Below are positions 55,070-62,567 of a stretch of 64,000 nucleotides of DNA, in pieces. Below the pieces are notes generated by a model, which saw only the letters and a list, made by a program, of their open reading frames with translations, searched no databases and had not been told where the DNA came from. Source of the DNA: Schmidtea polychroa (lineage: Eukaryota); contig CM097885.1 of assembly GCA_044892525.1 (NCBI GenBank), forward strand, positions 155,124,001 through 155,188,000, read 5' to 3'. Position 1 is the stretch's first letter. Every line of letters starts with the position of its first letter. The position numbers and the translations under genes were made by a program.

Positions 55070-57308
55070 TTACGATTCTTCTAATTGAAAATTGAAATTT
55101 TAAATGAATCGATAATAAAAATTTGAGTTTATATTGATTATAAATAACATGCAGTGTTTTTTTTTGCGTCTCAAAGTATCTCAAACTCGATACCAACCGA
55201 ATAGCATCACGCGTATCTCTCAAGCATGTCAGAGTAAGGCTAAAGCACAAGCACACACATTACTGTTGAACTCGGCAGCTCGATAAACTGGGACATATGC
55301 ACACCAACTTGCAGTACTAGTAATCATGTTATGATGTTTGGCGTAGCAGATTGTCTTATCGAATGCCGAGCAGACATTACTCGATCATTACCGTGTAACT
55401 TGTTGTTGCTGTCAATTTGTTTACTCGGCGTTGCTATAAACAGCATCAATATCATTGGCTTAACATCATCGATTGGTGCTGCTATTCATTACCATAGTAA
55501 TAATTCCATAACGAACTTTGCACACAACTGAATTCGTGTTACGCTCTCATCCCAAATGATAAAAACAACAAATATTTTCGAAATAAAATCAATTTTTAGG
55601 AGTAAAAAAATATTTTTGAATAAATAAAAGAAAAATTTCTTGGACTTACTCGTGTCAACTTTCCGAGATTTCAACTGGTGCCAGTGATATTTTTTTCAAT
55701 AAGAAAAAAGAAGAAGAGTGTCAGTTCTCTGTTATTCGAGTGGTAATAACTCACTGTATGTATTACGGTTGAGTCGTAGCGAGGTGTGTCTTCATCGAGT
55801 AATACAATTGTAAACGAATTAGCACGACTCAGGTGAGTTCGATTTATACCTAAACCACAGTCGATTGGTCGTTACTGATTTACCGAATCGACTGTTTGCT
55901 CGGCAGACACGCGCGCGCACACACACATATATATATAAAAATATATACAGACCGATTTTTGCAAACAACCGTTCGGTTTGACCACGCTACTAGTGAGAAC
56001 TCGTCAGTTATCGATTTCAGCTCCGAACTACTAGTTGTCGGTGTGCTTGGTGGTCTTTGCTACGCTGTCATTTGCAACAACAACAGGCCAACTGAGTCAG
56101 TGTAAGCTCGATATTCGGGGCAGAAACGTTGACTCATGAAATTACATCCAAAATGGGGGCCAAAACAAATACATCTGTACTGTTCAGTTTGAAAACTATT
56201 GAAATCAATGCCAGCTAACAACGCGAAGAAATGAAATTAGAAAAGTGTAGAAAGTATGAATTTTCGAGTTTATTTAAACGAATTTTCGTGTGGAGATTTT
56301 GCATATATTTACTGATGTGATTTTATTGGTTTTGTATCGGATTTTATTATATTTATTATTATTTTATTCAACCAAACCAGGATAAATTTCCAGAAATAAA
56401 TTACAAAATTTGTTGGATCTAAACTTTAAATTTCAAATTTACACGATTTTTGTGTAAAATATGGCAAAAATCGGTTAAACAGTAAAACAACAAACAATAA
56501 TTTATAAGTAAAATTATTGAAGAATTAATAATAAATACTTTTACAATTATTTTTATCGCATATTTTTTTAACCCTTTTAATTAATATATTGATTGCATAT
56601 ATTTATAAACATTATAAAATAAATAATTATTTCAAAAATAAAAACTCTGACAATGAAAACATTTGTTAATTAATTTGTTTTAAATATATATTTTTAAAGT
56701 GATTTCCAAAACTATCAGCTTTAATAAATCTTTTTAAAATTTAACTTATTAATTTAATATTTTTTCGGTTTTAATAATTTTTCTCTGCACATATGTCCGA
56801 TTGTCGTGAAAGGTTTAAAAGCGTGGATGCAAAGGAGAAAATACCAAACTGATGTTAATTTCCGTCATTAGTATTATTGGAATAAGTAATTGCTATCAGA
56901 CATTTAAAGATATAATAACTATTAAATTATTTATCAGTATTATATTTTATTTAAAAAACAATTACGTGAGATACTATTTTGATTATTAGATAATTTAGAC
57001 AAATTATTTATAAAAATTATAATTGATAAACGCCAACTAAATATGTTGGATAACATCACGCTATATATTTCGATCGTTTAACAGTCTTCTACTGGCTACA
57101 AATCGTATTAATTATAACTAAATGAAAATATGAATATTTAATCAATAATCATCGTCATAAAATTGTATCAAACTAAAGGTATTTTGATAAAATTTTCTCT
57201 TTGAAAATAAAAAATTTAAATCTGTTGGGTTATTGGGTTGGTGATAAAATTAAAATTCTTTCTCTGACTCCAAGCGTCTCTTTGACTGATCCACAAATAA
57301 CACTTGAC

Positions 57309-57559
57309 AGTAGTGTGTATATAGCCCTAACCCAAACAACCCTCCCAACAAAACATACCTCCATTACGCTTAAACCATTACAAAAACAACCAAAAACTTA
57401 TACTTTTATAGTATTTTAACCCCATATTTTAAACAACAACCACCCTTAATCTTTAAAGCCTCAAACTCAAAAGCTTCAAACTAAAAAGAGAATAGAAAAG
57501 AAAATGGCATTATGAAAAAGTTAGAGGGCTATTTGGGATAGGGCTATATACACACTACT
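57309..57559. mobile_element. Miniature element with Polinton-type AGTAGT termini (251 bp)
   Basis: Perfect 21-bp TIR AGTAGTGTGTATATAGCCCTA, imperfect to ~40 bp; flanks CTTGAC / TTTGAT (4 of 6 match, possible decayed 6-bp TSD). Confidence 0.65.
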
Positions 57560-57645
57560 TTTGATCGCAATCAAACTCCGGAGTTGATCTTTATCAGATT
57601 ATTGATTTTAAATTATATAAATTAAAAAATAAATGAAAAATAGTA

Positions 57646-57710
57646 AAACTGCTCTGAGGGGACAGTGGTATTTTTTTTTTTTTTTTTTTTCACTGTCCCC
57701 TCAACAGTTT
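57646..57710. repeat. Hairpin with poly-T loop
   Basis: Perfect 13-bp stem TGAGGGGACAGTG / CACTGTCCCCTCA around GTA+T20, extended by AAACTG/CAGTTT. Confidence 0.85.
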
Positions 57711-58057
57711 TTTTGATCCGGATCATTTTTTTATTTATCAACCTCTTTCGTTTATCAAATCTCTTCCAATATACAAGCTGGCCAGACTCATACATCAGAA
57801 TCAATCCGATAATAGCAGCACACCTTATTATTCGCTTCTCGCTCGAATACGATTTCATCGGCGTTTTAAGTGTGCTGCTCGACAGTACAAATGAATTCGA
57901 AAGTGAATCCGAAAGAGGTCCGAAAACAACTGAGAAATAAATGTGCACATTATAGAATCGATCCGGGGGTGTTCGAAAGACAGGTGGCGATAATTACCGG
58001 TTCGCCACCATCACCCGTTTCAATAATTTTTTTTTCATATTTATGTTTAAAAATAAA

Positions 58058-58135
58058 ATAATTAATAAAATAAATAAAATAAATAAAATAAATAAAATAA
58101 AATAAAATAAAATAAAAATAAATAAAATAAAATAT
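58058..58135. repeat. (TAAAA)n simple repeat
   Basis: Directly visible. Confidence 0.85.
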
Positions 58136-58186
58136 AAATCTAAGATACCCACACTATTATTTTCAAATTTAAAAAAAAAAAAAAAA

Positions 58187-58261
58187 CTAACCACAGTTAG
58201 GATTTGAACCGCTATCCATTTGAACCACGGTGCCGGTCTAGCCCACTGCGCTATCTAGGTT
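58187..58261 (-). ncRNA. tRNA-like Pol III unit 1
   Basis: A box TAGCGCAGTGG (58243-58253), B box GGTTCAAATCC (58200-58210), 32 nt apart, then GGTTAG+T16. Confidence 0.6.
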
Positions 58262-58507
58262 TGGATTTTTCTCATTTTTTAGACTATAAATAATCGATTC
58301 AAGTTCTTTAACTCTTTCCTGTAATTGTTTCATTTTCTTCAATCTTATATCAGCAACATCTACAGCCTTCATATAAAAATGTCGATACTTTTCATTATCT
58401 ACCATCAACTCTTTGATGTATTCTAATGGTTCTTCTTCTCTTCTTTTCATTCTCTTATGTTTAACTTCATTCAATTCATTTCTCATTCTTTCTTTTAACT
58501 CATCCAT
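58238..58507 (-). CDS. Small coiled-coil/basic protein (89 aa), unknown
   Basis: ATG in TATAAAAATG context, heptad-rich; its last codons overlap the A box of unit 1. Confidence 0.55.
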   Translation of the reverse strand: MDELKERMRNELNEVKHKRMKRREEEPLEYIKELMVDNEKYRHFYMKAVDVADIRLKKMKQLQERVKELESIIYSLKNEKNPNLDSAVG

Positions 58508-58677
58508 TTTTATAAATATTTTTTTTATTGGATATATTAATTTTTGGTAGCTTAAGTTAAAACGTTTTTGATCTTAAATTTCCAAGAGTTGCCGTTGACC
58601 AATCTCCTTAAAAATTTGTACAAGTACTAAATCGAGTATGCTGATCAATATTTCGTTAAAAAAAATTTGAAAAAAAA

Positions 58678-58750
58678 TGACCGAAATGGGATTTGAACCC
58701 ATTGGTATTGGCAATGCAGTCGAGTGCTATTACCACTAAGCTATTAGAGC
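58678..58750 (-). ncRNA. tRNA-like Pol III unit 2 (5' half resembles tRNA-Cys GCA)
   Basis: A box TAGCTTAGTGG, B box GGTTCAAATCC 33 nt away, perfect T-arm ATGGG/CCCAT, partial D-arm, unpaired anticodon stem, ends GGTCA+T8. Confidence 0.65.
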
Positions 58751-58920
58751 TATACTCAATATAAAATAAGTTGTTAATGTGTGACTATTTATTGATGAAA
58801 TTAATAATTAATTATTCATTTTCTCGACAACTACCACTCAGATCCATCTGAAAATTTAAATATATACTAAAATCAGTACGCTGAATCAGATTCCGTTGAA
58901 AAAAAAATATCGAAAAAAAT

Positions 58921-58994
58921 TGACCAAAATCGAAAATTGAACCCGGTACTCCCGGTGATAAAATTGAAGCCTATTCCCACTCCGCTATAATGGC
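58921..58994 (-). ncRNA. tRNA-like Pol III unit 3
   Basis: A box TAGCGGAGTGG, degenerate B box GGTTCAATTTT 33 nt away, CCGG-GAGTA-CCGG hairpin, ends GGTCAA+T7. Confidence 0.55.
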
Positions 58995-59050
58995 TTACAT
59001 AATATATTTAATTAATCCTATTTTGTGTGTGTAAATTTTAATATATAAAA

Positions 59051-60337
59051 ATGAATAATATAAAAATTCAAGAAAAAAATAAATTAAATCTTGATTATAA
59101 TAAAGAATTTACTCATGAAATCAAGAAAAACGATGTACTTAAAATCTCCCCAACTTCAGGATCTATTGCAAACTTAAATCGTAGGGGTGATATAGTTTTT
59201 CAATCTCTTCAAACATCAAACCCTATAGATATTTGTAATGCCAAATTATATTATAAAATCGAATTAGAAATTGAAGCAAACAAAGATATAACCCTAGAAA
59301 ATAATTTCTTTCCAAATTTATTCTCCAACATGAGATTAAAACTAGGATCATCAGAAATTGAAACTGTTTTGCATCCGGGAGTATATTCTACAATGTTAAA
59401 TTTTATTTTGACTGGTTGTGATTATAAAAATGAATATGGTGAATTAACAGGCTGGATTCCTGATGTTAATAAAGGAGATTTAGATAAAGATGGATTAGAT
59501 ATAAATTATGGTTACTATAAAAGAGCTGAACTTTATAAATCTAAAAAATTTGAAGGTTATTTTGAATTAAAACACTTGTTTGGATTCCTTCAAAACTATA
59601 ATCGTATACTTCATAATGTTTTTATAGAATTAGTTTGTAATAGAGTAGAAGGTGATAAAAGATTGTTGTATGGAGATAAGGATACAACAGCTAAATTAAA
59701 AATATCAACACTTGAATTGCATATACCTGAATGAACATTAAATCTACATTCTGAAATCAAACTCCCTGAAAGATTAAATTCCAACAAGTCTATAAATGTA
59801 AATTATTTAAATAGAATCTGTAGTGAATTTAGTATGACAGAGGGTTCAACATATTCTATAAAGGTAGCAAATTTAGCATACCGACCAAGATATATCTTGA
59901 TTGGATTCAAAGAAGTAGATTCATCTTTCCAAAAAAATAACAACTTGTTTATTCAAAAGATTGGAGTTGATAATTTAAAAACAATCCAAATTCAATTAAA
60001 TAGTTCTTATTATCCAATAAATAGAATGGAATTTAATATTGAAAATAATGAAAACATATTCCCATATCTAAATTATATTGAAACATGTTATGATTTCAAA
60101 GTTGAACCGCAATTAAGTTTAGAAGATTTAAAAAATTTATATTCTATATTTTGTATAAATGTTTCAGACCAAGATGATCGCCTAGCCATAAATAATGTTG
60201 ATGTTACACTTCATGTAACAAAGGATTCTAATTTTAAAGCTAAAGTATATACATTAATATTAGAAGAAAAGAAAATAGAAATGAAATTATATGGTGGAAA
60301 GATTTCAATAATCGAAAATGTTAGGGGAGATTCTTGA
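59051..60337 (+). pseudogene. Double-jelly-roll major capsid protein (Polinton PY/hexon-like), one in-frame TGA at 59732-59734
   Basis: LENNFFPNLFSNMRLKLGSSEIE..PGVYSTM and RPRYILIGF..IQLNSSYYP..FCINVSDQ match Polinton MCP patterns; the frame continues through the stop. Confidence 0.8.
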
Positions 60338-60366: not shown

Positions 60367-61764
60367 ATGTCTCTCTATTGGAGATGTGAAAGTTGTAATT
60401 GTCAAGTTACAAGACATCATAAAGCAAGTCATCTAAAAACTAAAAAACATATAGGAGGCGACATGATTCCACGAGCCGGAGGCGACCTACAATCTTCAGA
60501 ACTGACATCTTCAATATTAAAACCTTTTACTACAGAAAAATATCCAGGTGAAAGACATTTATTTAAACACAACTATACCGGACCAGGAACAAGATTAGAT
60601 ATTAGATTAGATGAAAATAATAATCCCAAACAAGGAGAAGAACCAATAAATAGAATCGACCAAGCAGCTTTAAAACATGATATTGCTTACAATTCAGAAG
60701 ATCTTAGAGATAGACATGTTGCAGATGTTAATTTAATACATGATTTAAATAGTATCCAAAATCCATCAACCCAAGAAAAGATTCAAAGAGCTCTAGTTAA
60801 ATTAGCAATGAAAGGTAAGATTTTCATAGGCTTAGGACACAGTCCGATCGCCATGGGTGCAAGACTTCCTAGGAAAGCAAAAGATGTTGCTAATAAAAAG
60901 ATTATTGAACAAGCAGATGCTGAAAGATCCCTCGAGAATATATCCAAGACTAGTTTATTAACCCCAACAGAATCACAAATAAAATATGCCAACGAATTAC
61001 ACCATGAATTTAGAAAAAATAAAAAATATTTAAAAGTTCAAGTACATGAAAAAGATCAAACATGGTCTGCAGATTTAGTCTTTATGCCAACCAAATCATC
61101 AGACCCTGAAAAATATAAAATAATTTTAACTGTAATAGATTTATATACAAGATTTGCCTTTGCAAGGTGTTTAGAAAATAAAACAGGATATTCCATTACA
61201 GAAGCATTTGAAAATATATTTGAAGAACATCAAAGAATTCCAAAATATTTATGGAGTGATAAAGGAACAGAATTTTATAACAAAGTTTTTACAAAGTTTT
61301 TAAATGAAAATGATATTAAATTATATTCAACAGAAAACGAAGGAAAAGCAGTTGTGTTTGAAAGATTAAATAGAACATTAAAAAATAAAATGTGGAAATA
61401 TTTTACTGCTATTGGAAAACAAAAATGAATTGTTACAAAAGATTGTAAATGAATATAATAATGATGTACATAGTTCTATAAAATCAACACCTTTAAATGC
61501 TTCCATAAATCCTGAAACCATTAAAGTGGTAAATATTGAAAATGATGTTATTGAAAAACCAAAGTTTAAAATTGGTGACCGAGTAAGAATATTTAAATAT
61601 AAAAATAAATTTGAAAAAGGATTCACAGCAAAATGGCAAATGAAATTTTTATTATAAATAAAATAAATTATACAACTCCAATAACATATAGCATCATTGA
61701 TTTAAATAATGAAAAAATATTAGGTAGATTTTATAATAATGAGTTACAGAAAACAGATTTCTAA
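60367..61764 (+). pseudogene. C2H2 zinc finger + parvovirus-type phospholipase A2 + rve integrase in one frame; two frameshifts in the integrase 3' part
   Basis: CESCNC..HKASHLKTKKH; NYTGPGT..DQAALKHDIAY; WSADL, VIDLYTRFAF, WSDKGTEF, ERLNRTLK; then YNNDVHSSIK, FKIGDRVRI, FEKGFT, ITYSIIDL..GRFYNNELQKT. Shifts at ~61425 and ~61640. Confidence 0.88.
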
Positions 61765-62567
61765 GTCGACAAACTTTTCCATATTTCAGCTTCTTCTATA
61801 TCCAAATAAATATAATTATATTTTTCTTTCCAATGATTATCAACAAACATATCAAACATATTCTTATCAGGTTCAACATTTGAAAATAAATCATTATAAA
61901 TCATATTCTTATCACGCCTATCTAATTTAAAAAATATAAAACAATTGGAATTATTTCTTATTGAATTTTTATCTAAAGCATAATATGTTTGAGATATATA
62001 AATAACATTACAATTATTATGTCTTCCTCTTGTAAAGTAACTCTTTTGGATCTCTTGATTTTTCATGTTGACAACATCATCAAATATAACTAGATTCTTT
62101 TTATCTTTAGGAAGTAAATCACAATGTAAAACATCTTCAGGTTTATTAGAGAATAAAACTTGAATCGCCTGCCCCTCTTCACAGATGTAATCATTTTTAT
62201 TACTAATATCTGATTCTAAAATCATTTCCTTATACCAATCAACCATATCACAAGGTTGAAAAACTTCTTCAGGACATCTATGTTGATTTTTAAAAATATC
62301 AATTATAGCTTTTTTAGTTAAGTTATTTTCAAATCCACATTTCAAAAGTTGTAATTCTGGTTGATTTATGGTTGTAGAGTAAAAGATTAAATTATTATAA
62401 TCTAAAAAATCATCTTCAAGCAACATTTTCAAAACAAGTACATTCTTTCCACATCCAGAAGAACCAACAAATAATAATCTAAAATTATCAGGAAATACTT
62501 TATTATTAAATTTAGATTTATGTCTATTTAAAATTGGTTTCCAAATTATTGGACTTCGTACATCCAT
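61761..62567 (-). CDS. A32/FtsK-like DNA packaging ATPase
   Basis: Walker A GSSGCGKN (N at the usual S/T position), Walker B LVIFDD, FTRGRHNNCNVIYISQ, IRNNSN; ATG at 62567. Confidence 0.92.
   Translation of the reverse strand: MDVRSPIIWKPILNRHKSKFNNKVFPDNFRLLFVGSSGCGKNVLVLKMLLEDDFLDYNNLIFYSTTINQPELQLLKCGFENNLTKKAIIDIFKNQHRCPEEVFQPCDMVDWYKEMILESDISNKNDYICEEGQAIQVLFSNKPEDVLHCDLLPKDKKNLVIFDDVVNMKNQEIQKSYFTRGRHNNCNVIYISQTYYALDKNSIRNNSNCFIFFKLDRRDKNMIYNDLFSNVEPDKNMFDMFVDNHWKEKYNYIYLDIEEAEIWKSLST

Follow-up and report, generated by a model that had tools for sequence, protein, structure and literature searches.

A/B-box units at the end of a Polinton: a candidate structured Pol III RNA gene in the terminal repeats and a block matching the host rDNA spacer

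Does a Polinton encode small RNAs of the kind that adenoviruses make with RNA polymerase III (Pol III)? Adenoviruses and Polintons have in common a capsid fold, an ATPase and a protein-primed polymerase type. The question was raised by an earlier note on a 64-kb stretch of DNA (the window), in which three tRNA-like Pol III units near a capsid gene were read as one virus-made set and as possible analogues of the adenovirus VA RNAs. Our results showed that the three A/B-box units are real, non-random, not tRNAs and not one set. The VA-like idea fits a neighbouring unit, here called U0, far better than it fits units 1-3.

The element carrying the units is a Polinton/Maverick of the adintovirus type by its termini and gene content, as proposed earlier. 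The host is an AT-rich animal with an assembly of 781 Mb, and a flank encodes a C4 zinc finger. The genome contains more than 1000 copies of the element. The five full copies were 14.8-15.1 kb long, with inverted repeats of 908-1030 bp and AG...CT ends; the 6-bp target duplication was exact in 3/5 and matched at 5 of 6 letters in 2/5. In the window, the left terminal inverted repeat (57309..58261) contains the terminal palindrome, U0 and unit 1, all of which are duplicated at the far end of full copies. The element end (AGTAGT...) and the imperfect terminal palindrome of about 250 bp occupy 57309..57559. Every subfamily had an imperfect palindrome end of about 210-250 bp in which the AGTAG termini were kept and the inner sequence was lineage-specific (window 57309-57559; ends in stretches L057, L063 and L069).

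Four coding regions were annotated on the rest of this part of the element. A 90-aa ORF of no known family, with weak, unnamed look-alikes only, lies on the minus strand at 58238..58510 and was found at the capsid end only. The major capsid gene (PF21738, double-jelly-roll; 59051..60337, plus strand) has an in-frame stop in the window copy. It is followed by a PLA2-like domain (PF08398) fused to an rve integrase core (PF00665) at 60367..61428 on the plus strand, and by the packaging ATPase (PF04665) at 61761..62567 on the minus strand. Just outside the window, the element is interrupted by a second, unrelated Polinton, after which the first continues to its pPolB gene (PF03175). The nested family is about 15.2 kb long with 1.6-kb repeats (stretch L031:893 to L032:6095), encodes a small TBP-like protein (PF00352, L031:3054-3461) and had no A/B unit matching the generic A/B consensus. 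Candidate ORFs in stretches L031 and L032 for an adenain-type protease and a minor capsid protein, suggested by motif, had no convincing Pfam or PDB match.

The three co-oriented units lie where the earlier note had placed them, all on the minus strand. Unit 3 (58913..58994) has its A box starting at 58987 and its B box at 58943, unit 2 (58670..58750) at 58743 and 58699, and unit 1 (58171..58261) at 58253-58243 and 58210-58201, with a second B-box copy at 58226. The A-to-B spacers are 33, 33 and 32 nt, respectively. The units are 73-75 nt long and end in GGT(C/T)A followed by T7 (unit 3), T8 (unit 2) or T16 (unit 1). Unit 3 stands head-to-head with the capsid gene, 56 bp from its ATG (about 55 bp had been claimed), and in the window copy the end of the 90-aa viral ORF runs into unit 1, as described; some subfamilies are without this overlap. 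The motif of the earlier note had no match in the 64-kb window beyond units 1-3. A generic A/B consensus, taken from general knowledge, gave four matches in 57309-59050 against a mean of 0.026 in 1000 shuffles (25 with any match, maximum 2), and six in the whole window against 1.0 in 40 shuffles. The fourth match in 57309-59050 is U0, which the earlier note had overlooked.

None of units 1-3 forms a full cloverleaf, in agreement with the earlier description, and ARAGORN called 0 tRNAs. When its threshold was relaxed to 90-85%, units 2 and 3 were called; unit 1 was never called, down to 80%. The low tRNA score that had been expected was also obtained: unit 2 reached 32.4 bits on the Rfam tRNA model, compared with 62.6-74.1 for host matches (63 scored), and over 57000-60000 no other Rfam family came near the cut-off. 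The anticodon arms are broken, and unit 2 keeps a perfect T arm. These sequences support the proposed tRNA-derived type-2 Pol III signals. The sequence between the boxes had been said to differ completely; it was unrelated in two of the three pairs and barely related in one (p 0.27, 0.79 and 0.03). Fold z-scores against shuffles were -0.1 for unit 1, -3.0 for unit 2 and +0.1 for unit 3. With lengths of 73-75 nt, and with units 1 and 3 folding like shuffles, units 1-3 are poor VA-RNA analogues.

Units 2 and 3 lie in a block (58544..59039, minus strand) that is near-identical to the host 45S rDNA intergenic spacer, with 7 substitutions in 494 positions and 8 gap columns. Unit 3 is identical to its host spacer copy. 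The 5' half of unit 2 comes from host tRNA-Cys(GCA): 26 of 30 aligned positions match from the D arm to the anticodon, and the remainder has been replaced. The tRNA-Cys pattern alone had 1000 matches in the genome. Long tandem arrays of host tRNA genes, each with one type (Lys, Arg, Cys or a further type in L264) repeated about every 280-420 bp, were seen on contigs C4, C140, C333 and C474 and at the end of C1. Twenty stretches sampled at contig ends or on small contigs included four, from three places, with unit 2 or 3 and no Polinton part; Rfam placed 18S, 5.8S and 28S genes around them. The first 30 unit-3 matches in genome order were beside Polinton parts in 29 cases and in rDNA in one. 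The three units are thus no single virus-made set, as units 2 and 3 belong to a host rDNA spacer repeat and a spacer-derived satellite. Their common 3' flank is real (61 of 84 columns), but the duplication behind it was not local, as had been suggested, because the pair is already present in the host spacer.

In the host 45S spacer, five tRNA-like A/B units follow one another in the same orientation, opposite to that of the rRNA genes (L271:464-1504; also L256/L257, L261, L280 and L281). Five spacers on three contigs had the same order: a further tRNA-like unit, unit 3, and three unit-2 copies with a 243-bp period, in a whole rDNA repeat of about 13 kb. Near its start, contig C1 has a tandem satellite of 1.25 kb (L276:4793-10000; L277:8299-9814) that begins directly beside an 18S gene. 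The satellite contains a decayed copy of unit 2 and its flank at 79-84% identity and follows the spacer about 165 bp past the farthest Polinton boundary seen. Because the satellite copy extends beyond that boundary, unit 2 appears to be an old spacer resident, and transfer from host to Polinton is the likelier direction. Judged by these alignments, units 2 and 3 were likely captured by the Polinton from the host rDNA spacer, and recently. A second Polinton lineage carries a slightly longer spacer piece at another position, and the variants that it has in common with the window type suggest a single capture followed by reshuffling. Within block 58544-59039, the substitutions against the spacer numbered 1/146 in the units and 6/348 in the flanks (p 0.68), which gives no sign of selection on units 2 and 3 inside the Polinton; the units being no more constrained than their flanks, recent exchange accounts for how alike the Polinton copies of them are. 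Units 2 and 3 may be passengers, although in the commonest subfamily sampled they place two additional boxes beside the capsid promoter.

Unit 1 has a different history. It lies within the inverted repeat at both ends of all five full copies and all 30 of its position-ordered matches had Polinton parts next to them; it was absent from one whole host rDNA repeat. Its copies are 82-100% alike, and it is older than units 2 and 3. The A box was intact in 88 of 91 copies and the B box in 85 of 91. Columns varying in at least 5% of the 91 copies numbered 2 of 22 in the boxes against 19 of 53 elsewhere (Fisher p 0.023, with related copies counted as independent), and both varying box columns still fit the consensus. 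This supports constraint on the boxes of unit 1. Selection on unit 1 thus appears, from this pattern of variation, to act on the promoter rather than on the fold. Strict covariation of the end stem was considered and rejected, as the 5' and 3' types assort freely. A minority form (5/29; e.g. L059:2834) has most of the A box and the next 9 letters as in unit 3, hinting at common ancestry or conversion with unit 3.

U0 (57624..58016, minus strand) is a predicted Pol III gene that follows unit 1 in the same orientation after about 150 nt, with a putative RNA of about 370-390 nt whose start is placed from the A box. The A box (57997..58007) was intact in 55 of 56 distinct copies, as was the B box GGATCGATYC (57955..57964), and their spacing was 32 nt in 53 of 56. 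Shuffles of the U0 region gave a generic A+B match in 16/2000 cases, or 3/2000 when the last B-box C was required. T runs of T4, T5 and T6 lie at 57648, 57640 and 57629. An internal T4 at 57926 could cut the transcript short at about 90 nt. Since host tRNA-Lys and tRNA-Arg genes, where observed, end in T6-T7, read-through of this T4 is plausible. U0 was present in both inverted repeats of all five full copies, and Polinton parts adjoined each of its 30 position-ordered matches; one whole host rDNA repeat was without it.

The structure of U0 is strong and strand-specific. The 396-nt region had a fold z-score of -8.1 on the box strand against -4.3 on the opposite strand, and of -5.1 against -2.4 when the last hairpin was left out. 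With the helix set taken from the window copy, 99.2% of 4911 cells were paired across the 56 copies. All nine variants at paired columns that occurred in at least three copies preserve pairing, and 13 of the 89 pairs are G.U. Three of five structure measures beat all 500 shuffles; the other two were matched or exceeded by 198 and 367 of 500. Pairs changed on both sides numbered 2/89, covariation being limited because the copies are related (86-100% alike). A long hairpin at 57752..57812 on the minus strand has 25 pairs, nine of them G.U, and a pre-miRNA-like shape; 25 pairs are short for Drosha. This hairpin is firm as RNA and missing from the DNA centroid, and U0 as DNA had a fold z-score of -3.9. 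The last hairpin (57645-57711, minus strand) has a poly-A loop of about 9-25 nt, with one pair changed on both sides in 17/56 copies. A protein product was rejected, as the frame was open to the end in 6 of 56 copies, without an ATG in 12 and stopped early in 38. A known ribozyme, snoRNA or miRNA was also rejected, no Rfam match being obtained. From these sequence features, we believe that U0 is the real VA/EBER-like candidate of the locus.

Contigs from sequencing runs were also compared with a natural copy of the element. In three runs that we guess to be RNA, contigs cover U0 and parts of the capsid gene, and in two of the three they extend to unit 1 and, sparsely, to units 2 and 3. When contig depth was summed, it peaked over U0 in the three guessed-RNA runs and was flat in a fourth run, but contig depth cannot rank parts of the element, and we take the pattern as a lead at most. 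The internal A run of U0 could prime oligo-dT and so bias the depth of the guessed-RNA contigs.

Genome-wide pattern matches, exact or with one mismatch, numbered 3003 for the U0 head, 1941 for one unit 1 form and 2098 for unit 3. Position-ordered samples, drawn from the first part of contig C1, were beside Polinton parts in 89/90 cases and in rDNA in 1/90, with 0/90 free dispersed copies; unit-2 matches lay inside the element in 20/20. The expected confinement to Polinton copies was therefore found for unit 1, which is as exclusive as U0, and not for units 2 and 3, which also occur in rDNA and the satellite. Among 37 capsid loci (42 less 2 without a readable capsid start and 3 repeats, not a random sample), a unit lay within 100 bp of the ATG in 19, further out in 10, and none lay within 1.4 kb in 8. 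Presence in sister copies, also expected, thus held for 29/37 loci. One subfamily has unit 3 in this place near the ATG, head-to-head with the capsid gene, and others have unit 1.

The unit-less loci include whole sister lineages with open capsid frames, and the cassette is therefore dispensable. In unit-less elements whose far end was visible, it too was without units (2/2); in that survey 7 of 10 stretches aimed at far ends had no recognisable end. The element end is modular, with units shuffled, doubled and lost between subfamilies. The copies in L059 and L060 group with the unit-less lineage in pPolB and capsid. Their capsid ends nevertheless have the units, arranged differently: unit 1 comes first, U0 second, and then either units 3 and 2 or only unit 2. 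This suggests cassette exchange between lineages. Beyond this genome, no units were found at 16 metagenome loci with distant relatives (33-52%), mostly without element ends. This negative is weak because the five loci with upstream DNA have a different gene order and no element end. Capsid relatives at 73-75% exist. Viral contigs gave no capsid relative and no U0 head, two distant capsids used as genome queries returned only subfamilies of the window Polinton family, and a 91-bp capsid DNA query had no matches and was uninformative.

How might such a cassette work? We give even chances to the reading that the Polinton inverted repeats carry an accessory Pol III RNA cassette, with U0 as its main product and predicted decoy, unit 1 as a companion, and units 2 and 3 as host-derived sequence. 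U0 and unit 1 face outward in both terminal repeats with intact A/B boxes and would likely be transcribed by host RNA polymerase III. TFIIIC would bind the A/B boxes, and Pol III would start about 7-9 nt upstream of the A box, pass the internal T4 and stop at the T runs near 57640. The predicted U0 transcript is a folded RNA of about 370 nt. It may act as a decoy for host small-RNA or double-stranded-RNA defences, which is the least supported step; PKR is a vertebrate protein. Unit 1 may yield a 75-nt RNA or merely help to recruit TFIIIC/TFIIIB, and units 2 and 3 would have come recently from the host and may or may not be of use. As each element has two such promoters, both internal, every integrated copy could make RNA without active Pol II genes. 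A bolder version seems to us unlikely: that the VA/EBER-like RNA from both repeats blunts RNAi/piRNA, that trading units with the rDNA spacer opens the capsid promoter, and that the cassette aided the expansion to more than 1000 copies.

Other explanations were weighed against the RNA cassette. The boxes may act as DNA, with TFIIIC at both ends forming chromatin boundaries or opening the capsid promoter and any RNA a by-product. This is the main rival, and we hold it to be rather unlikely. The boxes are present in both inverted repeats, like the B boxes described in fission-yeast IR-L/IR-R in the part of PMC7474672 concerned with them. Unit 1 keeps its boxes and not its stems, a head-to-head unit lies within 100 bp of the capsid ATG in 19/37 loci, and the Polintons of a planarian are reported (PMC8532177) to be silenced via piRNA-guided chromatin change. 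However, a boundary needs B boxes alone. The A boxes at exact spacing, the terminators and 300 nt of strand-specific, G.U-rich structure would be left unexplained, and 18/37 loci have no unit near the capsid ATG. All units may also be passengers, host Pol III relics that recombined into a permissive element end and were copied along. For the whole set we think this doubtful, and for units 2 and 3 alone much more probable. It suits their 7/494 substitutions against the spacer, with no sign of added constraint on the units themselves, and the way in which modules are rearranged, duplicated or missing from one subfamily to the next; PMC12220804 considers the rRNA genes captured by polinton-like viruses to be probably without function. 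The structure-keeping variation of U0 and the box conservation of unit 1 among Polinton copies are not explained by it, and the whole rDNA repeat contains neither U0 nor unit 1.

U0 may instead fold as single-stranded DNA or as part of an mRNA and serve the element's replication, packaging or 3'-end processing, its A/B match being incidental; we regard this as improbable. U0 does lie in the terminal repeat beside the palindrome, folds as DNA too (z -3.9), and at one end is downstream of a minus-strand ORF. Against this, a chance A+B match is as rare as the shuffles above indicate, the G.U-rich hairpin is unstable as DNA, and lineages without U0 have spread. That the units are inserted host SINEs or working tRNAs is largely refuted and can hardly be credited. 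Their tRNA-derived heads, the A-rich stretch near the U0 3' end and thousands of genome matches would suit such an origin, but no position-ordered match was free (0/90), all 20 unit-2 matches lay in the element, and the non-Polinton copies seen were rDNA and satellite. Moreover, the A run of U0 is a hairpin loop and not a tail, and the anticodon arms are broken. In these samples the units are thus not the dispersed SINEs that would have refuted the earlier note.

Among known systems, VA RNAs, EBERs and TMERs are the ones that the RNA cassette would resemble in its working, should it work, though it belongs to none of them. VA RNAs, EBERs, TMERs and BLV pre-miRNAs have type-2 Pol III promoters according to the sections of PMC4378190 and PMC8223928 that deal with them, and the adenovirus VA RNAs and EBV EBERs described there resemble U0 in their internal A/B promoter, T-run end and strongly structured RNA. 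All four units have A and B boxes at tRNA spacing and a T run. A stable predicted structure with a long duplex, conserved at the limited divergence depth of the copies, was found for U0 and not for units 1-3. In length, VA RNAs (about 160 nt) differ from units 1-3 (73-75 nt) and from U0 (about 370-390 nt). The candidate genes here also lie in the terminal repeats of an integrated element and have no Rfam homology beyond the tRNA score of unit 2. U0 and unit 1 were Polinton-encoded in all samples, and units 2 and 3 are host rDNA spacer. MHV68 TMERs and the BLV and foamy-virus Pol III pre-miRNAs resemble the cassette in that several tRNA-like units are grouped in one orientation and an A/B head is followed by a long hairpin. 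In TMERs, a tRNA and hairpins form a single transcript that is cut by RNase Z, as outlined in PMC4378190, whereas T16 and about 150 nt part unit 1 from U0, and the U0 head gave no cloverleaf at relaxed ARAGORN thresholds.

There are precedents for tRNA genes and for captured pieces of host rRNA in Polinton-type elements (PMC12220804 and PMC8502044). The tRNAs of polinton-like and MELD viruses were called there by Rfam or ARAGORN and read as translation aids; the present units are degenerate, include a long structured RNA gene and derive in part from the rDNA spacer and not from rRNA genes. Fission-yeast IR-L/IR-R and ETC sites are similar in having B boxes in inverted repeats around a 15-20-kb domain. 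They have TFIIIC without Pol III in the account seen in PMC7474672, whereas full A+B promoters, terminators and an RNA fold are kept here. A narrow all-term open-access search found no description of Pol III units in Polintons; published ncRNA tables and figures and repeat databases may hold precedent. The same kind of search found no paper on tRNA-like units in rDNA spacers.

It is odd that a host rDNA spacer should carry five antisense tRNA-like A/B units, and their presence shows sequence traffic between rDNA and a virus-like element. The U0 idea is cheap to test because about 3000 U0-head copies exist in the genome, and natural lineages with and without the cassette offer a built-in comparison. 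Adenoviruses, herpesviruses and some retroviruses are known to make small RNAs with Pol III, and Polintons are adenovirus kin. If true, a structured Pol III RNA gene in Polinton repeats would be an RNA-level counter-defence or a chromatin tool.
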